27,040 nt of DNA from Nostoc sp. DedSLP01 (GTDB taxonomy: Bacteria > Cyanobacteriota > Cyanobacteriia > Cyanobacteriales > Nostocaceae). The translations under genes and the position numbers were made by a program. Each line of letters begins with the position of its first letter. Positions within the stretch are counted from its first letter, which is position 1. Positions 4,021 through 26,793 of this stretch are shown here, piece by piece. The DNA is taken from contig JAVRCJ020000063.1 of assembly GCA_034530875.2 (NCBI GenBank), forward strand, positions 1-27,040. Direction: 5' to 3'. The notes under the pieces are model-generated. The model was not told where the DNA came from. It saw only the letters and a list, made by a program, of their open reading frames with translations, and ran no database searches.

Positions 4021-4176
4021 ACTTACTTAACAATCAGGAAATTTAAAAGCAATAATTGCTGGGTAAGTAAGATTAGCATTGGCAAAATCTCTAATAGGCT
4101 AGTACTATCAGGTAATTGTTTAAGAGAATAGCGATCGCTATTACTGCTTATTCATGTCCAAATGCTACTAATTGCT

Positions 4177-4647
4177 ATGACAATCTACTTTTACAGTATC
4201 CGCGAACAATACGGTTGTTTCTCGAACTTTTCTGCCCACGGCTTCGAGTTAGATGGATTGTATTGGCCGACTAGCGAACACTACTTTCAAGCACAAAAGT
4301 TTATCGGTACGCCTCACGCAGAACAAATCCGCCTGGTTAAAATGCCCAAAGATGCTGCAAGAATGGGGCGTCAAAGAAGTCGTCCGCTACGAAAAGATTG
4401 GGAGGAAGTTAAAGACGACGTTATGCGCCAAGCAGTTCTACGTAAATTTCAAACTCATACAGATATCAGGGATATCCTCCTTTCTACAGGTAATGAAGAA
4501 ATTGTGGAAAACTCGCCCATCGATTTTTACTGGGGTTGTGGGGCTGATGGTAGCGGTAAAAACATGCTAGGAAAAATTCTTATGGAAGTGCGAGATATCC
4601 TCCGCCATACCTACAGCACAAATACCGATAATAGTACAGTAAAATAA
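4177..4647 (+). CDS. NADAR (YbiA-like) N-glycosidase
   Basis: FSNF, WPTSEHYFQAQKF, KFQTH, IVENSPIDFYWGCG..G.GKNMLGKILMEVR; start taken at ATG 4177 (MTIYFY) rather than 4162. Confidence 0.92.
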   Translation: MTIYFYSIREQYGCFSNFSAHGFELDGLYWPTSEHYFQAQKFIGTPHAEQIRLVKMPKDAARMGRQRSRPLRKDWEEVKDDVMRQAVLRKFQTHTDIRDILLSTGNEEIVENSPIDFYWGCGADGSGKNMLGKILMEVRDILRHTYSTNTDNSTVK

Positions 4648-6883: not shown

Positions 6884-7951
6884 TTATTTACTCATTCTGA
6901 GTTGCCCGCAAGCAGCATCCGCTTCTAAGCCACGGGAGTAACGGACGCTAACAGCAATTTGTTGTTGCTTGAGAACATTCACAAATGCTTCAATGCGATC
7001 GCGGTTGGGGCGTTTGTAGTCTACTTCTTGGATGGGGTTGTAAGGAATCAAATTTACATGACTTTGAAATCCCCGCAGCCGTTTTGATAGTTCTAGTGCG
7101 TGTTCTGGCAGATCGTTGACACCAGCCAGGAGAATATATTCAAAAGTAACGCGGCGTCCGGTGATTTCCACATATTCGCGGCATTCAGCTAGCAAATCTT
7201 CTAAAGGATAAGCGCGGGCGCTGGGGATGAGTTTTTCCCGCAGTGCTTGGTTGGGTGCGTGAAGACTAACTGCAAGAGTGATTTGCAAATGGTGCTGGGC
7301 GAACTGACGGATGCGATCGCGAATACCTACTGTAGAAACAGTCAGCGATCGCTGCCCAATACCGACATCTTGATTGAGAGATTTCAGGGCTGCCAAGACA
7401 TTTTCAGTATTTAACAACGGTTCGCCCATACCCATGAATACCACATTGCTCACTCGTTGTTGAAAATCTTCTTGCACAGTCAACACCTGATCGACAATTT
7501 CATGCCGTCCTAAGTTGCGCTTATAGCCTCCTTTACCAGTAGCGCAAAAATCGCACGCCATCGGACAACCCACTTGAGTAGAGACGCAAACCGTCAGCCG
7601 ATTTTCTGAAGGGATACCAACAGTTTCAATAATTTGTCCGTCTGCTAATCGCAAAAGATATTTTACCGTGCCATCGGGTGCCACAGAACGGTAGTGTAAA
7701 GTTGAGCGCCCGATGGGAATGTCTGCAAGTTCTTTCCGCCATTGCTTGGGGAAGACAGAAATATCACACAGCGATCGCACCCCCTTGTGATATATCCATT
7801 CATGTAGTTGTTTTCCTCTGTAAGCAGGTTGTCCCTGTTGTTGCACCCAAGCAGTTAACTCCGCGACGGTTGCACCAAGTAGGGGAGGAAGTAATGCTGA
7901 TTTGGCTGGGTTGTGTGAGTCAACCTGAGATACAAGAGGTGTAGCAGACAT
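6884..7951 (-). CDS. rlmN: 23S rRNA m2A2503/tRNA radical SAM methyltransferase
   Basis: [18 protein letters not shown] (CxxxCxxC), MGMGEP, SLHA, AACGQL. Confidence 0.97.
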
Positions 7952-10152: not shown

Positions 10153-12591
10153 TTAAATGAATTCAATATCTCCAAATAAATGTGGCGGAATCTGTTCTTT
10201 CGGTAGAAGTAAATTGTCAATCAGTTCTTCTCGCAAACCTTTAATAGTGTAGCGACTTTCTTGGATACAATCCAACAAAAGATTACTAACATAAAGGTAG
10301 TTATCTAGAGCTTTAGCATCCTCTTCCGAAAATTGCACATTATAACCAATATCTAGCTGTTCAAGCATCACATTTTGTAATTCATCTGCCCACTGTTTCC
10401 ATTCTAAGGTTGGACTATTATTAGCAGGTTGACGAGATTGTAAAAATTTTAGGGCATCTGCTAAATTAGCATTACTATTTTCTAGTGCGATATTAATTGT
10501 TTCCTGTAATTTAGATTCAAAAGTAAAATTCTCATCAACCTCTAGACGGGTTTGAATAAATTTACTAGATTCATAAATTTTCCAGCTTCTCTTTGATGCT
10601 TTATCGCTAGCAAAACTATGTATAATTGATAAATTTTTTGCAAGTAAATCTTTAAAATTGCTAAGAATAATTTTATCATATTTTTTATTAATTTCTCTCA
10701 GTTTTATAGACAAGCTTTCGGCAGTACTACGGTCTATATTTATGTCATTATCAATATATAAATCTATATCTAAATCTATTGTTAAGTAAAAAGCTCTCCA
10801 CGAAGCAGACGAAAGCTCTAGTGTTTTTGTTGTTAGTTTATATAGCCATTTCAGCATTTTTTGTAATTCATCGTTTTTAACTAGTTCATTTGCATAGTAA
10901 AAAATTAATTTTATAAAATCGTCAGCATCAGCTTTTGGCAATCGACAAGCAATAATGACAAATACTTCTCGCCAATGGCAATCTGTTAAATGTTCTTTTG
11001 TAATTTGCTTTAAGAGTCCAGGAACACGGCTTTCATATATATATTGGGCAGTAAAATACTCCTGAAAAGTTAAATGCGAAAAAGCATAAATTCCTTGAGC
11101 CGCTTCAGCAATCAGACCATGATGTGTTTCAAGAGATTTCAAAAATAATTGGCTATCCTCATCTAAGTTTTGAGGCTCAAACCCATCAATATTTTCAAGA
11201 AATTTACGAATTTTTGCTCCTAGTTCAAACTTATGCCAAAAGTATTTTTGTGGTTTTTGAATAAATGCATCATAGGCTATTTCTGCCAAAATATTAATTT
11301 TAAGATGGCGTGAGAGTTTGTCTGAAGAAGTTGTGTCATGTTGGATTTTACGACTAGTATCCCACCTTTTTAATAGTACTTCTACTGCATCTTGATACAA
11401 TTGATATCTATTTATAGGTAAATCATAATTATCTCCAGCAACCAAGCATAATAAAGTTAGCAATAATGGATTCTTTGCTAAGTCTTTGATAGATGGATTT
11501 GCATTCAGTTTACGCAAAAAATTCTCTAGTTTATCCTTATTTTGGCTTTGCTTAAACCATTGATTTATGAAGCTTTCTATTTCTTCATCGTTAAAATCTG
11601 CTATCTCTACTTCGGCAAATTCTTTAAAAACATATTCACAGGCTCCATGACGGCAAGTAATAATCATCTGATTTCTACTATACCTTTCATTCAAATCCTC
11701 AATACTTTTATATATATCATAAGTATCTCTAGCTAAAACTTCATCTAAACCATCTAATAAAATCAAGCATTTACCCTTGTCCAAGTAGTCTAAAATCAAC
11801 TGGTCTACATCCTTCCGAATATGTTTTACTTCATCAGGAATCCATTTAGCAAACTCTTGAAGAATACAATTAATTAAGTTTTGTTTATTTTCAGATTCTG
11901 CAAATTTTTTTAGAGATATAAAAAACGGTAAAGGTTTTTCTGATGTATCTTCTTCAGTAAATCCATGCATAGCTATATACTTTAAAAAAGTAGTTTTACC
12001 TGCACCTGCCATTCCCCATATCATCAGCTTGTTATGTTTTTTTACTACGTCTAATCCTGGAATTCCTTTTTCGTGGACTACCTGGCCAAATCTGTTACAA
12101 TCTAGCTTATTATCTTCTAATTCTTGTATACTTGTTACTCGCCTTCCTTTGATACTTTCGATAATATTCACTTTGATAAAAATATCATCTAAATCAATAG
12201 GTTCTCTCATTGATAATATTTTTACAGTTTTACATTCCTTCGTCAGATGTGCTAAATAAGATTCATAAGAATGTAACCAGCTTTTTTGGACAAATGTAGT
12301 TGGTGTAGTTACAGGAGCAAATTTTTTGACTGCTTGTTGATAACTTTTACATCCTTCTAGTAAAACATTACATAAGTAATTAAGATTTTTCTCCTGCATA
12401 TTTGGTGTAGCATTGGAATTGAAAAAATTACGTATTGTTCTCTCTGAAATCAGATGCTCGTCTTTAGCAAGGTAATGTGGAGACTGGGAGTCAAGTTTTA
12501 ACATGAGAACCGTAGGAGAACCACCACATTTTTCGCTATAGGCGTGTTTTAGCTCATTAAAAACTTGCCGATCGACTTGAATTGCTGCCAT
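10153..12591 (-). CDS. NACHT (STAND) NTPase with N-terminal HTH-like domain and C-terminal helical (NCH2-like) domain
   Basis: Walker A GMAGAGKTT, Walker B LILLDGLDEV, ITCR, NPLLL, FSHLTFQEYFTA, WREV; N-terminal ISERTIRNFFN helix; C-terminal W..W...L....DIGY...FSEED...L.NYL. Confidence 0.92.
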   Translation of the reverse strand: MAAIQVDRQVFNELKHAYSEKCGGSPTVLMLKLDSQSPHYLAKDEHLISERTIRNFFNSNATPNMQEKNLNYLCNVLLEGCKSYQQAVKKFAPVTTPTTFVQKSWLHSYESYLAHLTKECKTVKILSMREPIDLDDIFIKVNIIESIKGRRVTSIQELEDNKLDCNRFGQVVHEKGIPGLDVVKKHNKLMIWGMAGAGKTTFLKYIAMHGFTEEDTSEKPLPFFISLKKFAESENKQNLINCILQEFAKWIPDEVKHIRKDVDQLILDYLDKGKCLILLDGLDEVLARDTYDIYKSIEDLNERYSRNQMIITCRHGACEYVFKEFAEVEIADFNDEEIESFINQWFKQSQNKDKLENFLRKLNANPSIKDLAKNPLLLTLLCLVAGDNYDLPINRYQLYQDAVEVLLKRWDTSRKIQHDTTSSDKLSRHLKINILAEIAYDAFIQKPQKYFWHKFELGAKIRKFLENIDGFEPQNLDEDSQLFLKSLETHHGLIAEAAQGIYAFSHLTFQEYFTAQYIYESRVPGLLKQITKEHLTDCHWREVFVIIACRLPKADADDFIKLIFYYANELVKNDELQKMLKWLYKLTTKTLELSSASWRAFYLTIDLDIDLYIDNDINIDRSTAESLSIKLREINKKYDKIILSNFKDLLAKNLSIIHSFASDKASKRSWKIYESSKFIQTRLEVDENFTFESKLQETINIALENSNANLADALKFLQSRQPANNSPTLEWKQWADELQNVMLEQLDIGYNVQFSEEDAKALDNYLYVSNLLLDCIQESRYTIKGLREELIDNLLLPKEQIPPHLFGDIEFI

Positions 12592-14350: not shown

Positions 14351-14620
14351 CTAACGATTGTATTCATCTGCGGGGTCGCCGTAGGGGTCTTCGCTGGCTG
14401 GGCGGACATCGCCGTAAGATGCTATATCTGCGGGGTCGCCGTAAGGGTCTTCGCTGGCTGGGCGAACATCGCCGTAAGATGCTATATCTGCGGGGTCGCC
14501 GTAGGGGTCTTCGCTAGCTGGGCGGACATTGCGATCGCGGTATTCTTTATCTAGTTCGCCTTGGTCGTTGTTCTGCCCCAAGAGGAAATCTTTCGCCTTT
14601 CGCAAAAAGTCATCTACCAT
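14351..14620 (-). CDS. Small acidic repeat protein (3x VRPASEDPYGDPAD)
   Basis: AGGAG before ATG; 20-aa in-frame repeats. Confidence 0.85.
   Translation of the reverse strand: MVDDFLRKAKDFLLGQNNDQGELDKEYRDRNVRPASEDPYGDPADIASYGDVRPASEDPYGDPADIASYGDVRPASEDPYGDPADEYNR
14366..14529. repeat. 60-bp coding tandem repeat, about 2.7 copies
   Basis: Units start at 14366, 14426 and 14486 and are nearly identical. Confidence 0.92.
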
Positions 14621-14696: not shown

Positions 14697-15185
14697 TTAA
14701 AGTGCCGGAGCTGCCGATGAAGTGATGCCAGTTAGATCGCGGCCTGAAGAACTGCCGTTATATCCTTGAAATTGCCGATACTGTTGCGCTTCAGACTCCG
14801 GCACTCGAATTCCTTCTGATGGTGGAGTTACCCAGTGAGCGCGGTGTTCGGCATCGCGGTAGTATACACGCCCATTCTTGGAAAGGTAGTACTTACCTTG
14901 CGCTCCTTCTTGTGGAGCATTTTTATGCTGGTTGTAGAGGTAGTAAAGTGCTGCTGCACCTGCCAAAATAGCCACTTTTTGACCGCCAGACAAGCCTTTT
15001 TTAGCTTGGGTTTGGGTGTTGCGATCGCTGACTGTTCTACCAACGGTATCATCAACAGGTGGTGGTACATTGGCACTCCGGGAACCTCCTCCGCAGCTAC
15101 TCAGCAATGGCACTGTTAGCAATGCCGAAAGGAAGACAGCGAGCAAACGTGAAACTACTTTACGGTCTTTAAATATTGTAATCAT
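14697..15185 (-). CDS. Putative lipoprotein
   Basis: Signal peptide with lipobox LSSC (Cys31), a second hydrophobic helix, YYLSKNGRVYYRD motif. Confidence 0.8.
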   Translation of the reverse strand: MITIFKDRKVVSRLLAVFLSALLTVPLLSSCGGGSRSANVPPPVDDTVGRTVSDRNTQTQAKKGLSGGQKVAILAGAAALYYLYNQHKNAPQEGAQGKYYLSKNGRVYYRDAEHRAHWVTPPSEGIRVPESEAQQYRQFQGYNGSSSGRDLTGITSSAAPAL

Positions 15186-15515: not shown

Positions 15516-16175
15516 ATGACATCAAAAAATACAACCCAAACCAAAACCCGCGTGCTGTTAGCTTTGTGGGATTTGGGAGGAATTGGGCAGCAAGTGAGTA
15601 AAGGTTTACTCACGAAACGAATTGTATCCAAAAATAAAAAGGTAGCAGATTATCAAGGCATATTCGAGGAATTACAGAGCCAAGGAGCGATCGCTATTTC
15701 CAAAAAGGGATATTCTCTGATATCTCCCAAGGGTTTGGAGGTATTGGGTGATGGTTTGAGGAGTGATGATTTTAAATTTGAGGGGACGATTGTCGGAACT
15801 TGGGCGGCGAATGCGTTGGTTAAGTGGATTAGTCAGATTAATGTTGCGGTTACTAGGACAGATGTAGCGGTTAATGGGAAGAGTGGGGCGATCGCTTCTT
15901 ATGACGAGTTTAAATCTGTGGCGTTGGAAGTCTACGACAAGTTGAACTATGAGTACAACTTTAATAATTTAGTGCCAATTTATCGCATTAGGAGAGAAAT
16001 CGGCGATCGGGTTAATCGTACAGAGTTTAATGATTGGCTACTCGAAACACAAGCCGATGATATTTTGCAACTACAAGGTGGGAGTGTAGAAGACAGCGCA
16101 CCTGACAAAATTGAAGATTCGGTAACTACAGAATTAGATGGATTACGCTGCTACGCCACACGTCTGCAACCTTAA
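15516..16175 (+). CDS. Putative tandem winged-helix DNA-binding protein (C-terminus recalls RcaD-family proteins)
   Basis: N-terminal RVLLALWDL...FEELQSQGAIAI...SPKGLEVL; C-terminal LVPIYRIRREIG...RTEFNDWLLETQADDILQL; first gene of an operon. Confidence 0.7.
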   Translation: MTSKNTTQTKTRVLLALWDLGGIGQQVSKGLLTKRIVSKNKKVADYQGIFEELQSQGAIAISKKGYSLISPKGLEVLGDGLRSDDFKFEGTIVGTWAANALVKWISQINVAVTRTDVAVNGKSGAIASYDEFKSVALEVYDKLNYEYNFNNLVPIYRIRREIGDRVNRTEFNDWLLETQADDILQLQGGSVEDSAPDKIEDSVTTELDGLRCYATRLQP

Positions 16176-16216
16176 ACCTTATTTAGCTTTTCACATAATA
16201 TTAACTTCACAAAATT

Positions 16217-18121
16217 ATGGCTGTTAGCACATCTACCATTGACGATCTGATTAGAAATCAAAACCCTTTTGCTGGGCATATTGTGGTCAGACCACAACAA
16301 ATCTGGGGTAAAAGCTTTCCTGATGTGCCTTCAATTAATGCTTACGTGTCTAATTCAGTTTTTGATGCCGTTGAGAAAGTCCGTAAAGGTAAACGTGAAA
16401 CTGTCGGTATCACAATCACAGCAGAAAAAGGCTTAGGTAAAAGCCATATTATTAGCCGGATTCGCCACCGCTTAAAGACAGAAGATGGCAGCTTATTTAT
16501 TTATATGAGTAAGTATGACAATCTGAACCAAATTAAATATCAATTTCTCCAAACAGTCGCCTCTAGCCTTAGAGCATTTGGAAGCCAAGATTTAATGCAA
16601 TGGCAAGAGGTTGCCGCAGCTTTAATTAACGAAGTAAAGCAATGGAATTATACACCACAACAATATATTAGTATGTATCCTAGTTGGTTAAGCAAATACT
16701 CAACTAAGGCTATAGATCATTTAACAGAAATTGTTTTGAAACTTAAGCCTGAAATAACCAACCCTTACATAGCGAGAGCAATTTTATGGACACTATCTAC
16801 AGTCCATGCTAATTTTGCAACCTACTGGCTATCTGGTTTGGAATTAACACAAACGCAAGCTGAAGCTATGGGATTACCTAATCCTAAAAGTGAGGATAGA
16901 GAAGCTGAAGCATTAAGTACTGTTCGTCAAATTCTAGATATTACTAGTCATTATCGAGTTCCAGTGATTTGTTTTGATGAATTAGATATTACAGATGCTG
17001 CTGATAATGGATTTTTAGCAGCACAAGTTGTCGCAAGCTTAGTTAAGGATTTATATAACAGCCTTAAACAAGGTGTTCTGGTCTTAGCGATGTATCCTCG
17101 TACTTGGGAAGACCAAATCAAGGCTTTGCCAGAAGCTGAAGCAGTTATAGATAGATTAGTAAGCGAGCAAACTGACAGACAGCCTATCAAATTAAGCTTT
17201 CTTAATTCTGATGATATTGTTGCTTTAGTGAGCCGATGGTTACAAGATTTTTATGATGAACATCAACAAACACCGCCTCATCCTGTCTACCCCTTTGATG
17301 AAATTAAACTCAGAGAACTTGGTAAGAGCAGACCAACTGTTAGATCGGTTTTAAAATGGTGTGCAGAAAACTTCATACCTCCTTTATCTCCAATTGAAGA
17401 AATATTACCTCCTCCGCCACCGCCTGGGCTAATATTGGGTCTACCACCACATGCGGTTCAACCATACTTCAATAATGAATTAGCAAATTTTGAGGCTTCT
17501 ATTGATTCATTAATGGAAGAAGATGCAACAATTGCTGAAGCTCTTTGGCTAGCTTTCAATAGTTTAATAGGTGAAACTTTAGAGGGAGTAACAATTAAAG
17601 ATATTGAAGAAATTGAAACTAGTGCAGGAGATAAGGGTTTTATTGATTTCAGAATCGTTGGCAATAATAGGAAGGTTAAGATCGGAGTAAGTGTAGTTCA
17701 GCAAGATGGCAAGTTTATAGGTGCTGCCTTAAATCGATTAATAGACTATAGAAAGTTTGATTTAACTCGCGGTTGCTTAGTTCGTTCAAAGAAGATTAAG
17801 CCGGGTGCAGGATTAGCTAGAGAACGTTTAAGAATACTGTTGAAAGAAAAGGGTGGAGAGTGGGTGGGCTTGCAAAGCCAAGATATTAAACCTCTTTTAG
17901 CTATCTATTTTGTTTGGTATAACAGAGATAGTTATCAAGTGACAGAAGAACAAATATTTGAATTTATTGAGCAAAAAAAATTAGCAATCAATAATCCTTT
18001 AATTCGAGAAATTCTCAGCGATCCTTCTGGGCAAGAACCTACTAATTTAACTGATGATGAATTACCTATTAGGATTCCTCAAAGTGTTACTACTACCGAT
18101 TATGTCGAACTAAATCTATAA
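16217..18121 (+). CDS. P-loop (AAA/STAND-like) ATPase
   Basis: Walker A AEKGLGKSH, Walker B VICFDELD, YPF...RPTVRSVL motif, poly-Pro linker, separate C-terminal domain. Confidence 0.85.
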   Translation: MAVSTSTIDDLIRNQNPFAGHIVVRPQQIWGKSFPDVPSINAYVSNSVFDAVEKVRKGKRETVGITITAEKGLGKSHIISRIRHRLKTEDGSLFIYMSKYDNLNQIKYQFLQTVASSLRAFGSQDLMQWQEVAAALINEVKQWNYTPQQYISMYPSWLSKYSTKAIDHLTEIVLKLKPEITNPYIARAILWTLSTVHANFATYWLSGLELTQTQAEAMGLPNPKSEDREAEALSTVRQILDITSHYRVPVICFDELDITDAADNGFLAAQVVASLVKDLYNSLKQGVLVLAMYPRTWEDQIKALPEAEAVIDRLVSEQTDRQPIKLSFLNSDDIVALVSRWLQDFYDEHQQTPPHPVYPFDEIKLRELGKSRPTVRSVLKWCAENFIPPLSPIEEILPPPPPPGLILGLPPHAVQPYFNNELANFEASIDSLMEEDATIAEALWLAFNSLIGETLEGVTIKDIEEIETSAGDKGFIDFRIVGNNRKVKIGVSVVQQDGKFIGAALNRLIDYRKFDLTRGCLVRSKKIKPGAGLARERLRILLKEKGGEWVGLQSQDIKPLLAIYFVWYNRDSYQVTEEQIFEFIEQKKLAINNPLIREILSDPSGQEPTNLTDDELPIRIPQSVTTTDYVELNL

Positions 18122-18132
18122 CTAAATTACAA

Positions 18133-19515
18133 ATGAATCAGCTGTTCTCAATTCCAACAGCACTATGTCTACCTGCCCCTGATATTGAAGCTTTAATACA
18201 GGGGCGAACAATTGCAGCTTTACCTAAGATGTTTATTCGTCCTGGGCAAAGATTTGCACTTTATCCTAATGAGTCTTCAGTTTCAATTAAAGCTTGGGCT
18301 AAATGCGAACTTTGTCAGATTTTAGACGAGAGTAAGCCATTAGATATTTTGTCAAAATTAACAATATGGACACCACAAAGACTAAAAGAGATACTACAGC
18401 AACAGCAGTACCTTTTTTTAACTTATTTACGTGTCTATCAGTTACCTCAGTTACAAGAAATACCAGTTAATTCTAGTATTCAAGAAAAGTTAGGAAAATT
18501 TGTTAGTTTACCTAATCCTTTAAAGGTTTCTGAAGACAAGCCAATTTTAAACGATCGCACTTTCGCCCAACGCAAGCATCAACTAGAAAACTTACAGCCA
18601 CCACTGTATCCTGAACTGGAAGAATTACAAAGTGCGATTGCCTCGCTAACCAGTAACCAACCAGCAGCTAAACAATTAGATAATGATATCAAAGTATTTT
18701 TAGGTTGGAGTAGTAACAAGTTAATTAAACAACCCGATGCAAGTTTAGCTTGGATAGATGATATCGCAAAATTAGGCGATCGCAGCATAGAGTTAGATGA
18801 GAAAAAAAGCAACTACCAAGCTGGTACAGATTTTGAAAATATCGCACGTCAAAGTCTGGAATTTTTAGGCTTCAAAGTTGAAAGTGCTTTCAAAGGTGGC
18901 GCTGGAGGCTTAGATTTATATTGTTCAAAACCTTACCCTATTGTTTGCGAGTGTAAGGCGGGTAAGCTCATTCCGAGTCGTACTGTTGAGGAATTACTCA
19001 AACTTGGTGGAATGCACTTAGGTAAAACTCAACTATTAACTTCAGCTAAGTTAGTAATTGGCCCTGGTAATCCATCTCCAGATACACTAAAAGCCGCTAA
19101 AGAGTGGGAAGTAAGTATTATTAATGCTATGACTCTACAAAAGCTCGTTGAATTCCAAGCAAAATATCCAGGCGCTATTAATTTAGTAGAATTACAGCAA
19201 TATCTCAAACCTGGGCAGATTGACTATAAAATTGATGAATATATTGATAAAGCTGAGAGAGAAATTCAATTGCGATCGCACATTATCCAGCTTGTCAAAA
19301 ATTATCTAGAAAACTCAGGTATAGAATCTGCTGGTGTTGAATCTCTACATGGTGCTTATTTCGGTTCGCATCCACCACAGCCACTAAAAACAACAGAAAT
19401 GTATGAAATTCTGATAGAGCTTTCTTCGCCCTTAACAGGTTATTTAGGACGAATTAAAGGTAGTGATTGGAAGAGCGATCGCTTTTACTTTCTACGCAAT
19501 TTACTTATTAACTAA
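18133..19515 (+). CDS. DUF1802-like N-terminal domain fused to a PD-(D/E)xK (Mrr-like) restriction endonuclease domain
   Basis: DIEALIQGRTI...FALYP...IKAWAKC...LRVYQLP; GTDFENIARQSLEFLGF...GGLDLYC...CECKAG catalytic pattern. Confidence 0.8.
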   Translation: MNQLFSIPTALCLPAPDIEALIQGRTIAALPKMFIRPGQRFALYPNESSVSIKAWAKCELCQILDESKPLDILSKLTIWTPQRLKEILQQQQYLFLTYLRVYQLPQLQEIPVNSSIQEKLGKFVSLPNPLKVSEDKPILNDRTFAQRKHQLENLQPPLYPELEELQSAIASLTSNQPAAKQLDNDIKVFLGWSSNKLIKQPDASLAWIDDIAKLGDRSIELDEKKSNYQAGTDFENIARQSLEFLGFKVESAFKGGAGGLDLYCSKPYPIVCECKAGKLIPSRTVEELLKLGGMHLGKTQLLTSAKLVIGPGNPSPDTLKAAKEWEVSIINAMTLQKLVEFQAKYPGAINLVELQQYLKPGQIDYKIDEYIDKAEREIQLRSHIIQLVKNYLENSGIESAGVESLHGAYFGSHPPQPLKTTEMYEILIELSSPLTGYLGRIKGSDWKSDRFYFLRNLLIN

Positions 19516-19614: not shown

Positions 19615-19932
19615 TCATATTCTGCCAGTTGTTCCTGTTTCGTTCAGGCAAAAAACACAGTGGTAAGTATTTAGGTACTTTTCAAGGGCTTTTTTATGAG
19701 CTTGCATTATGTCAGCATCAATCAAGTAATCACTGCTATCTGGCTCAACAGCAATATACTAAACATAGTGTTCTTCAATTAAATCGGGACGCACACGCTC
19801 AACAATTGCCCGACAACGCTGATAATACGCTTCATCTTCAGCTTTGTGTTTAGCAACTTCTTCTGGTGGTAAAGTGCGTTCTGGAAAGATTCTGCCCCGG
19901 CGTGCAGGTTGTTTTGCAGTTGATTCTGTCAG
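19615..19932 (-). pseudogene. Pseudogene of a small cyanobacterial hypothetical protein of the kind usually paired with a clan AA aspartyl protease
   Basis: 106-codon frame (L)TESTAKQPARRGRIFPERTLPPEEV...EEHYV*YIAVEPDSSDYLIDAD...FCLNETGTTGRI; CTG in place of the start, in-frame TAG at 19759-19761; ATGA-coupled stub MIQSRF follows. Confidence 0.7.
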
Positions 19933-20309: not shown

Positions 20310-20969
20310 ATGTACTATCAAATTTGGAATTTCTTCCTTCAAGAGGATAAATATAATTATTGGAAAGATACAATAAAAATTAATAAAAGTTTTAATAGGG
20401 TTACTTGGCAAAAAGTTATTGACTTTTTGTCATTGGTAGAGCAAACTTTCGCCCTGAAATATCAACTTGGAGAAACTGATAATCTAGAGCCATTTCTTAA
20501 ATTAGCAAGAGAAAATGGTTACAATCTCACTGCCCAAGAACTTGCGTGGTTTTTAATTACCAGAAAACAGATTTGGGATCTTTTTGATTTTGCACAAAAA
20601 ACGCCATCTCTTAAAGAACAATTACTAACAGCTAAAAGTCCACAACATTTTGTCAATATAGCTGCCGATAATGGCTATTACTTTTCTGTAGAAGAATTAG
20701 CTTGGTTGTTAACTGAAATCAAATCCTCGTCGGAATTAGTATCGATTAATAACAGCGTTGGCGAGATTCTGACGGTATCGAATTACGGCAGAATTGAAAC
20801 AGGATATTGGATTTGGTTGGCAGAAGACTGGGGAATTGTAGCGCCATTTTGTCATCGCGATAAGCCTGGTACTTTTTTATCTCAAAATATCAGCAATCCT
20901 TTTTTACCCGATCGCTGTTTTTTACCCAAGAGCTACTTTAACCAGCGGCTAATGGCACTTAATAATTAA
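20310..20969 (+). CDS. Protein with two tandem Nif11-like leader domains
   Basis: FL..VEQT.ALKYQL.....LEPFLKLARENGYNLTAQELAWFL and LFDFAQKTPSLKEQLLTAKSPQHFVNIAADNGYYFSVEELAWLL. Confidence 0.75.
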   Translation: MYYQIWNFFLQEDKYNYWKDTIKINKSFNRVTWQKVIDFLSLVEQTFALKYQLGETDNLEPFLKLARENGYNLTAQELAWFLITRKQIWDLFDFAQKTPSLKEQLLTAKSPQHFVNIAADNGYYFSVEELAWLLTEIKSSSELVSINNSVGEILTVSNYGRIETGYWIWLAEDWGIVAPFCHRDKPGTFLSQNISNPFLPDRCFLPKSYFNQRLMALNN

Positions 20970-22802: not shown

Positions 22803-23060
22803 TTAAACATCTGGCATAGGGATGACACGCAAAAATTTTACGATTCCACCCCTAATTTCTATACCAATGAGATAATTATCTAAAGTGAAGCGATGAAAAA
22901 TCCCTTCACTATCAAGCTGTCGTAGTTCTTTTAGTCCACTCAACTGCCACTTATGGGCAAACTGGGTAAACACAAAGTCATACACCCGCTCGTAAGCAGC
23001 AGGTTCTAAATTTTTCAGGTCTAGCAAAAAAGACCTTGCATAGCGCACTTCCAGACTCAC
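22803..23060 (-). CDS. RelE/ParE-fold protein with apparently degenerate catalytic residues
   Basis: GTG start; YARSFLLDLKNL N-terminus; HRFTLDNYLIG where YRIRVGDYR is expected. Confidence 0.7.
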   Translation of the reverse strand: MSLEVRYARSFLLDLKNLEPAAYERVYDFVFTQFAHKWQLSGLKELRQLDSEGIFHRFTLDNYLIGIEIRGGIVKFLRVIPMPDV

Positions 23061-26290: not shown

Positions 26291-26530
26291 ATGAAAAGTG
26301 AACAGGAACGCGAACAATTAATTAAAGAGATTAATGTATTTTTAAATCAAGCTTATGATAGCACTTTAGATGAGATTTACGCACTACTACAAACAATAGA
26401 AGAAGAAGAGGAAGAAGAAGATTTAAAAGCTTACGACAAAGCAAAAAAAGAAGCTAATATTGATAGTTCAGTGTCATGGGAAGAAGCTAAAAAAGAACTA
26501 AAAACAGGAATAAACAAGGAAGTTGCGTGA
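26291..26530 (+). CDS. Type II antitoxin (acidic)
   Basis: GAGG Shine-Dalgarno; EEEEDLKAYDKAKKE...VSWEEAKKEL; GTGA overlap with the toxin. Confidence 0.8.
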   Translation: MKSEQEREQLIKEINVFLNQAYDSTLDEIYALLQTIEEEEEEEDLKAYDKAKKEANIDSSVSWEEAKKELKTGINKEVA

Positions 26531-26793
26531 GTTATAAAGTTGAAATATTGAGGGGTGCATTGAAGCAACTTAAAAAAATACCGTTAGAACTTCAAGAACG
26601 TATACAAATTAAAATTGATGATTTAGCTACAGAACCACGTCCGAATGGGGTTAAAAAGCTAAAAGGCAAAGAAAATGCTTATAGAATTAGAGTAGGTGAC
26701 TATCGAATTATCTACGAGATTTTCGATGAGCTTCTAGTGGTGAATGTTGTGGAAGTCGGACATCGTAGAAATATTTATAAAGAGGAAAGTTGA
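26527..26793 (+). CDS. RelE/ParE family toxin
   Basis: PRPNGVKKLKG...YRIRVGDYRIIYEI...VVEVGHRRNIY. Confidence 0.92.
   Translation: MSYKVEILRGALKQLKKIPLELQERIQIKIDDLATEPRPNGVKKLKGKENAYRIRVGDYRIIYEIFDELLVVNVVEVGHRRNIYKEES

Follow-up and report, generated by a model that had tools for sequence, protein, structure and literature searches.

Mosaic inheritance of a three-gene Nostoc locus encoding a predicted Orc1/Cdc6/TnsC-type ATPase and an ASCH-nuclease fusion, a candidate methylase-free anti-invader system

In this study, a three-gene locus, here called the trio, was investigated in a 27,040-nucleotide stretch of DNA (the window) from Nostoc sp. DedSLP01 (assembly GCA_034530875.2, contig JAVRCJ020000063.1, positions 1-27,040, forward strand). 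The trio encodes a small putative DNA-binding protein (gene 1), a predicted Orc1/Cdc6/TnsC-type AAA+ ATPase (gene 2) and a fusion of an ASCH-like domain, a PD-(D/E)xK nuclease core and a winged helix (gene 3). We consider the trio to be probably a methylase-free, ATP-gated nuclease system directed against invading DNA, and its parts are inherited as a mosaic. This reading is preferred because the nuclease comes without a methylase, the distribution is patchy, purifying selection is evident and old alleles have been shuffled; it retains the defence role proposed in an initial annotation of the sequence, the interpretation of which was supported in part. A more specific proposal is advanced tentatively, namely, that in filamentous cyanobacteria the trio is a near-core chromosomal immune locus with ancient alleles shared across genera, combining a sensor block that contains a degenerate ASCH adaptor with interchangeable nuclease and winged-helix modules. 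The layout is not new, contrary to the initial annotation: Rakesh, Aravind and Krishnan 2024 (PMC10853773, section 22) predicted in a single sentence that operons of an Orc/Cdc6 ATPase, an ASCH-restriction endonuclease (REase) fusion and a winged helix-turn-helix (wHTH) protein act against invaders. Module-wise allele exchange is absent from the literature passages covered, and the covered passages of PMC12839542 and bioRxiv 10.64898/2026.10.19.760177 contain no description of the trio.

Gene 1 (15516-16175, + strand, 219 aa), gene 2 (16217-18121, +, 634 aa) and gene 3 (18133-19515, +, 460 aa) are co-oriented open reading frames (ORFs) separated by gaps of 41 and 11 nt, as initially annotated. 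The host genome (8.57 Mb, completeness 99.8%) is placed among Nostoc relatives by the nearest named neighbours of its pgi gene. Each trio gene is single-copy in this genome by tblastn, and a stand-alone DUF1802 gene is present elsewhere in it, apart from the trio. Pfam assigned DUF1802 (E 5.7e-33) and Mrr_cat (E 1.6e-4) to gene 3 and, weakly, AAA_22 (E 9.4e-6) to gene 2, with nothing credible for gene 1. No DNA methyltransferase was evident among the 28 window ORFs, 10 of which were Pfam-scanned, in line with the first inspection; the ORF at 6884-7951, outside the scanned set, presumably resembles the rRNA methylase RlmN. Methylase motifs were found in 0 of 119 related loci in a crude motif scan of linked genes with flanks of about 7 kb or less. 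NCBIfam returned only weak ATPase matches far under the cut-off (Sll1717, E 3.8e-5; DS41_1, E 2e-4; DpdH, E 0.08), and a PDB sequence-profile search with the trio proteins returned nothing credible. A promoter scan was uninformative (8 sites vs 15 in shuffles), no repeats or element ends were found flanking the trio, and no RNA data set containing it was listed among sequencing runs.

Mosaic inheritance was evaluated from pairwise identities, using 62 loci for correlations with pgi and 119 non-redundant trios, which also underlie all conservation counts, for correlations between trio parts. Among these non-independent pairs, the identity of the N-terminal domain of gene 1 tracked that of pgi (Spearman 0.72), with values of 0.23-0.30 for the ATPase and 0.07 for the nuclease core. 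The ATPase was tracked by the C-terminal domain of gene 1 (0.82-0.87) and by the ASCH domain (0.67-0.70). ASCH and nuclease core identities were correlated at 0.05; the nuclease core did not track anything (maximum 0.14), and the winged helix did so only slightly (maximum 0.26). The N-terminal domain of gene 1 follows the host phylogeny, and its C-terminal domain follows the ATPase class. The latter domain, the ATPase and the ASCH domain are inherited as one block, and reassortment of the nuclease core is independent of it. Among the loci, four main ATPase classes (64, 19, 16 and 8 loci; inter-class identity 29-51%) and four main nuclease classes (31, 23, 22 and 20 loci; 42-69%) were distinguished, and 15 of the 16 possible combinations were seen. 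The adjusted mutual information was 0.09 between ATPase and nuclease classes (shuffle maximum 0.10) and 0.74 between the ATPase and the gene 1 C-terminal domain.

Sharp DNA breakpoints lie within the trio between close Nostoc relatives. Compared with locus L166 of Nostoc linckia NIES-25 (pgi 96%), the trio of the window is 83-97% identical in gene 1 to about codon 160, 40-75% identical across the ATPase and ASCH parts, and again 82-100% identical from gene 3 codon 141; synonymous divergence (dS) from L166 was 0.23 for pgi, 0.27 for the nuclease and 1.84 for the ATPase. With loci L122 and L125, identity was 82-97% in the ASCH part and dropped to 44-74% in gene 3 codons 161-420; dS from L122 was 0.27 for pgi, 0.19 for ASCH and 2.04 for the nuclease. 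Quick trees (LG+G4) were built for 32 of the 62 loci, picked to span the classes. Several sister tips of the pgi tree differ in ATPase class and share nuclease and winged-helix classes, and the 12-genome clade that contains the window in this tree (support 97/98) was rejected by the nuclease tree (approximately unbiased test, p-AU 1.2e-5) and by the AAA+ ATPase tree (p-AU 4.5e-37). The alleles are functional and old because the within-class median ratio of nonsynonymous to synonymous divergence (dN/dS) was 0.10-0.22, which denotes purifying selection.

Linkage was surveyed in 150 genomes of the family, in which a strong match was defined by E up to 1e-50 for the ATPase and up to 1e-30 for genes 1 and 3. 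The ATPase was present in 104 genomes, 103 of which carried all three genes, and none of the three was detected in 36 genomes at these thresholds. The trio was contiguous in all 60 family loci hand-picked for long contigs and a spread of ATPase identity (28-83%), one of them with a short gene 1; no further conserved co-oriented gene lay beside it. A genome-wide scan of 80 loci, some of which duplicate the 60-locus set, found the ATPase and nuclease genes intact in 72, at a contig edge in 5 and broken in 3. The trio also occurred in 16 of 20 loci from other families. The co-occurrence on which the initial reading of one system depended is supported. Across the phylum, 59 of 301 genomes matched the ATPase profile at 1e-20, a few of them solely through a distant paralogue, and 3 of the 59 lay outside the host's own order. 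An upstream marker or pgi was kept nearby in 92 of the 119 loci, and both were kept in 46 (we take the slot markers to be ndhO, mdh and pgi); some genomes carry the trio at other positions. Gene 3 had no match on plasmids, and none of 308 pattern matches on viral contigs was confirmed. Stacked alleles were also observed: tandem pairs of full trios that differ in ATPase class (L143, L144), two tandem copies of gene 3 (L153, L155) and an extra ATPase ahead of the trio (L215).

A single copy in the host, a fixed slot and presence in about two-thirds of the family are features that favour housekeeping DNA maintenance, in which the trio would, for example, nick DNA in mismatch or modified-base repair or maintain the HIP1 octamer, found 7591 times in the host genome against about 55 expected; the best fold match of the gene 3 core is also a nickase. 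The lack of all three genes in 36 of 150 genomes at the thresholds applied and the exchange of ATPase classes only 29-55% identical between near-identical hosts make this role very unlikely. Long-lived balanced alleles at one slot and the near confinement to the host's own order are compatible with a self/non-self incompatibility or addiction locus acting between cyanobacterial strains or on incoming chromosomal DNA, not on phages. No cognate immunity or methylase gene was found in the loci examined, and there is no fixed ATPase-nuclease pairing of toxin and antidote because the classes mix freely; we rate such a locus as most improbable.

The AlphaFold2 model of gene 2 (predicted local distance difference test, pLDDT, 83.1) comprises an AAA+ core (residues 10-390) interrupted by a helical insertion at about 129-222, a linker rich in proline (391-409) and, at the C-terminus, an alpha/beta domain (412-605). 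The core matched Cdc6 7jgr_G with Z 15.0 (root-mean-square deviation 3.8, 242 aligned), 2qby_A with Z 14.7, TnsC 7m99_A with Z 13.8 (TnsC range 13-14) and BrxC with Z 11.1, and by this predicted fold gene 2 is an Orc1/Cdc6/TnsC-type AAA+ ATPase. The Walker A (AEKGLGKS, 69-76) and Walker B (CFDE, 252-255) motifs, recorded as intact from the outset, are near-invariant: G72, G74, K75 and D254 are conserved in 119/119 homologues and E255 in 111 (Q in 8). R313 and R376 are likewise invariant and are read, by position only, as the arginine finger and sensor 2. In the model, the C-terminal domain has a restriction-endonuclease-like order of elements (helix-3 strands-helix-strand-helix-strand) and lacks conserved catalytic acidic or lysine residues. 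The ESM Atlas gave no match to this domain at 0.9 or above, and hhalign found no similarity between it and the gene 3 nuclease core. YTHDF matches from the PDB profile search to residues 190-260 (E about 0.01) were dismissed as chance because this region is modelled as helices and the Walker B strand. No longer fused ATPases (1169-3335 aa) were found, which is weak evidence. Four stand-alone relatives of the ATPase (L204, L205, L206 and L207) have DR in place of the Walker B DE, and three of them sit between a membrane-anchored ORF of 221-227 aa and a 201-aa ORF that we take to be vWA-like.

The predicted model of gene 3 (pLDDT 85.6) contains three domains. The DUF1802 domain (18133-18588, +; residues 1-152, barrel 5-140) has an ASCH/PUA fold in this model, as had been suspected, with Z 9.2 to CXorf40A, 9.1 to ZmASCH 5guq (122 aligned; Foldseek E 9e-4) and 8.4 to YqfB. 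A modelled helical linker joins the barrel to a FokI/Nt.BspD6I-like PD-(D/E)xK nuclease core (18739-19242, +; residues 203-370), which matched Nt.BspD6I 2ewf_A with Z 14.6, FokI 2fok_A with Z 14.5 (147 aligned) and HindIII with Z 12.6. The E...D...ExK signature first noticed by eye is confirmed by conservation, with E235, E273 and K275 present in 119/119 homologues and D261 in 118. The C-terminal domain is an Orc/Cdc6-like winged helix (19246-19515, +; residues 372-460; Z 10.8 to Cdc6 8s0e_G) in which the SSPLTGYLGR segment is near-invariant and the second helix varies; residues 431-440 retain 95% identity even across classes.

This architecture bears on a strict type IV mechanism, in which the ASCH domain or the gene 3 winged helix would read a modified base and direct cutting, with the ATPase as a helper; it differs from the anti-invader reading in the trigger only. 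A PUA-superfamily fold is fused to a nuclease with no methylase nearby, and enzymes of the PD-(D/E)xK-wH and PUA-wH-HNH types are among those dependent on N6-methyladenine (6mA), according to the passages seen of PMC11037411, in which a role of ASCH as a DNA 6mA reader is unconfirmed. An 811-aa ATPase family member (L213:4240-6672, -) carries an extra C-terminal SeqA_C-like domain (E 6.6e-5, under the cut-off), a sequence match that hints at methylated-DNA binding in one lineage. After the first helix, LRKGGI.E is found in the three stand-alone DUF1802 proteins examined, whereas the matching stretch of the fused domain reads LPKMF in a gapless alignment made by eye; RKGG occurs in 0 of 119 fused domains, which at position 31 have Pro in 96 cases and Arg in none. 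We take the Arg of the RKGG motif to be the ASCH signature Arg. An ASCH insertion of 27-55 aa is missing in 37 of the 119, the window gene among them. The fused domain moreover tracks the ATPase class, not the nuclease, and Nostoc DNA is itself heavily methylated, so fewer marks would be available to a type IV reader. For comparison, YqfB requires Lys21, Thr24 and Arg26 (PMC6972931, in part). The loss of RKGG and the covariation with the ATPase leave the modified-base reading first ascribed to this domain unproven, and we regard the strict type IV mechanism as unlikely. Judged from the alignments, motif loss and linkage to the ATPase class are no less compatible with docking than with base reading; the linkage could also be explained by physical proximity to gene 2.

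Gene 1 comprises two domains (residues about 8-110 and 125-219) and is of the All4300 type, a distant paralogue of RcaD. The wHTH label it was first given finds some backing in weak SelB winged-helix Pfam matches in 10 of 54 members, and by sequence both domains are probably winged helices. Hhalign found no similarity between them, and the ESM Atlas returned only unnamed cyanobacterial clusters. Its length and neighbours suggest that gene 1 is the All4300 orthologue. All4300 is a signature protein of Nostocales and Oscillatoriales (PMC2823733, in part), and the available passages of PMC2799420 distinguish the All4300-type family (217-245 aa) from RcaD (285 aa, 22% identity) and place an RcaG-like ATPase after each. 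A complex prediction for genes 1 and 2 gave a score of 0.28, with the mark at 0.32. The gene 1 C-terminal domain recurs in many longer proteins, where its fusion partners include a phage portal/InPase protein, a telomere resolvase, and ferritin-like and ParB-like domains (P0114, P0137, P0022, P0121). Some Rivularia/Richelia loci (such as L138:4838-5770 and L143:151-1149) have an additional ORF of 310-332 aa upstream, which consists of a long Lys/Thr/Ala-rich, histone-H1-like tail and the gene 1 N-terminal domain only.

The resemblance to rcaD-rcaG that had been noted initially reflects a true relationship of genes 1-2. Homologues of genes 1-2 in the same order, with a nuclease gene next, are found both in rcaD-rcaG of Tolypothrix (Fremyella) PCC 7601 and in the HerA/FtsK capture systems coupled to Orc/Cdc6. 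By hhalign, gene 1 aligned with RcaD-type proteins at probability 96.5 and E 7.8e-10 (17% identity, only RcaD-type residues 97-280 covered) and gene 2 with RcaG-type proteins at 99.7 and 3e-27. RcaD-type proteins are about 280 aa long, and RcaG-type proteins are about 690 aa and 21-25% identical to gene 2. These sequence comparisons indicate that genes 1-2 are distant paralogues, not orthologues, of RcaD (about 285 aa) and RcaG. Unlike the trio, RcaD-RcaG loci have an FtsK-type third gene, often ParA, and, where matched, a Walker B of DQ or DN. The third gene encodes a 3'-5' exonuclease, a PD-(D/E)xK domain and FtsK in 17 of 20 such loci (4 domain-scanned); both paralogous pairs therefore precede a nuclease gene. 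Proteins of 280 aa next to distant ATPase matches are annotated as RcaD. Pairs of the RcaD type and the gene 1 type coexist in the same genomes, and no RcaD-RcaG-type paralogue was found in the host genome. A derivation of the gene 3 winged helix from the terminal winged helix of RcaG was unsupported, with no similarity to RcaG- or RcaD-type proteins by hhalign.

The steps that we infer for an anti-invader system would run as follows. The gene 1 protein would bind DNA and nucleate the Orc/Cdc6/TnsC-like ATPase, which may oligomerise on DNA upon a non-self cue. The oligomer would recruit gene 3 into a complex, partly via the ASCH domain, and cluster the FokI-like cores so that DNA is cut. FokI requires dimerisation to cut, and by analogy the gene 3 nuclease may need such clustering. 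As an outcome, the invader could be restricted, or the cell could die and thereby protect the filament. This logic would be akin to Tn7 TnsD-TnsC-TnsA or the BrxA/BrxC and SspB/SspC scaffolds, minus the methylase. Old alleles of the sensor block, made up of the gene 1 C-terminal domain, the ATPase and the ASCH domain, and of the nuclease core would be exchanged by recombination at one slot, as an arms race predicts.

Several observations weigh against the anti-invader reading. For a defence system, the trio is uncommonly widespread and stable in its position, and it lies outside any defence island in the window. PADLOC, proposed as a check at the start, gave zero matches for the three proteins and no named system. 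In 4 of the 20 loci from other families, all in one family, a distant ATPase occurs alone and has DR instead of DE in Walker B. The mosaicism establishes recombination of old alleles, not its cause, and the frequency of swaps is overstated because the loci were picked to cover the ATPase classes. The literature within reach of the search, which left out most subscription articles (Noubir et al. 2002 among them), yielded no experiment on the trio. In the passages seen of PMC2799420, RcaD binds the cpc2 promoter, and an All4300-type Lyngbya protein, a gene 1 homologue, was pulled down on a jamaicamide promoter; as a recombinant fusion, the latter protein gave no DNA shift. The promoter binding favours genes 1-2 as a transcription regulator pair like RcaD-RcaG, with the nuclease as a passenger or regulated target. 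Gene 3 overlaps gene 2 or starts within 30 nt of its end in 57 of the 60 family loci, its ASCH domain and the ATPase are inherited together, and RcaD-RcaG proper also precede a nuclease gene; a purely regulatory pair is, in our judgement, very improbable. The housekeeping, regulatory and incompatibility readings keep some weight because the trio is widespread and fixed in its slot, and taken jointly they are still rather unlikely.

If the anti-invader reading is correct, the trio would be a common, as yet unnamed obstacle to phages or to the transfer of DNA among bloom-forming and symbiotic cyanobacteria, it would demonstrate domain-level allele shuffling in a system that has no methylase, and RcaD-RcaG would need re-reading. 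On the more specific proposal of a near-core immune locus, the trio would be a combinatorial restriction machine without a methylase, and the light-acclimation factors RcaD-RcaG would be the earliest members of an immune family to have been characterised. The trio would also allow a direct check on modified-base reading by an ASCH domain fused to a nuclease. Because both the nuclease gene (BAB75997.1) and All4300 are present in Nostoc sp. PCC 7120, the 2024 prediction is testable in a genetic model with its own phages.

Other genes of the window surround the trio. An 89-aa ORF with three 20-aa repeats (60-nt DNA repeats; 14351-14620, -) and a 162-aa lipoprotein-like ORF (14697-15185, -) are divergent from the trio here and in many family loci. 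Directly downstream of gene 3, roughly half of the 60 family loci have a convergent pair, sometimes in tandem, of a 105-aa ORF and a 120-aa aspartyl-protease-like ORF; the window holds a broken copy of the former (19618-19932, -; one in-frame stop, 74% identity), and the latter was not found in it. An 812-aa NACHT/NCH2 protein (10153-12591, -) is encoded in a stretch of 30-31% G+C between mdh and the trio and is possibly a second defence gene; a gene 78% identical to it occupies the same slot in locus L171. The ORFs at 20310-20969 (+), 4162-4647 (+), 26527-26793 (+) and 22803-23060 (-) include a double Nif11-domain protein and a NADAR protein by Pfam, and two small ORFs that are presumably RelE/ParE-like.

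The trio was compared with known systems. The type IV enzymes MspJI, VcaM4I, HhiV4I, DpnI and Mrr also combine a PUA-superfamily domain, a nuclease and a winged helix with no methylase, and the trio likewise has no linked cognate methyltransferase by the motif scan; in the trio, unlike in these enzymes, the nuclease is obligately linked to an AAA+ ATPase and to a small partner, and its core is FokI-like. The McrBC logic first assigned to the trio is not supported, with no McrB/McrC match in PADLOC or Pfam and an ATPase that folds best on Orc1/Cdc6 and TnsC. BREX (BrxA, BrxC), SspBCD and Tn7 TnsD-TnsC-TnsA share with the trio a small DNA-binding protein, putative in the trio, and an Orc/Cdc6-clade ATPase, whereas neither a methylase nor a PglZ-sized partner, a sulphur-transfer gene, a transposase or element ends were seen in the loci examined; the linked modification genes of BREX and Ssp (PglX, PglZ; SspA, SspD) were likewise absent by PADLOC, the 60 loci and the 119-locus motif scan. 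The operon of PMC10853773, as outlined in its section 22, has a DndG-like triple-wHTH partner; gene 1 is a 219-aa protein of two domains with weak winged-helix matches that aligns solely to RcaD-type residues 97-280. That operon has a mobile neighbourhood; the trio is patchy, yet mostly in one chromosomal slot with no plasmid or viral copy found. Section 22 makes no mention of cyanobacteria, allele swapping or an altered ASCH motif. The same article describes an Orc/Cdc6, FtsK and exonuclease version with an inactive REase after the AAA+ core, in the passages seen, to which the REase-like order of the gene 2 C-terminal domain without catalytic residues may be compared. With the predicted operon, the trio shares its three genes, a AAA+ ATPase belonging to the Orc/Cdc6 clade, an REase-ASCH fusion in the same operon, a small partner related to the RcaD type and the absence of a methylase.

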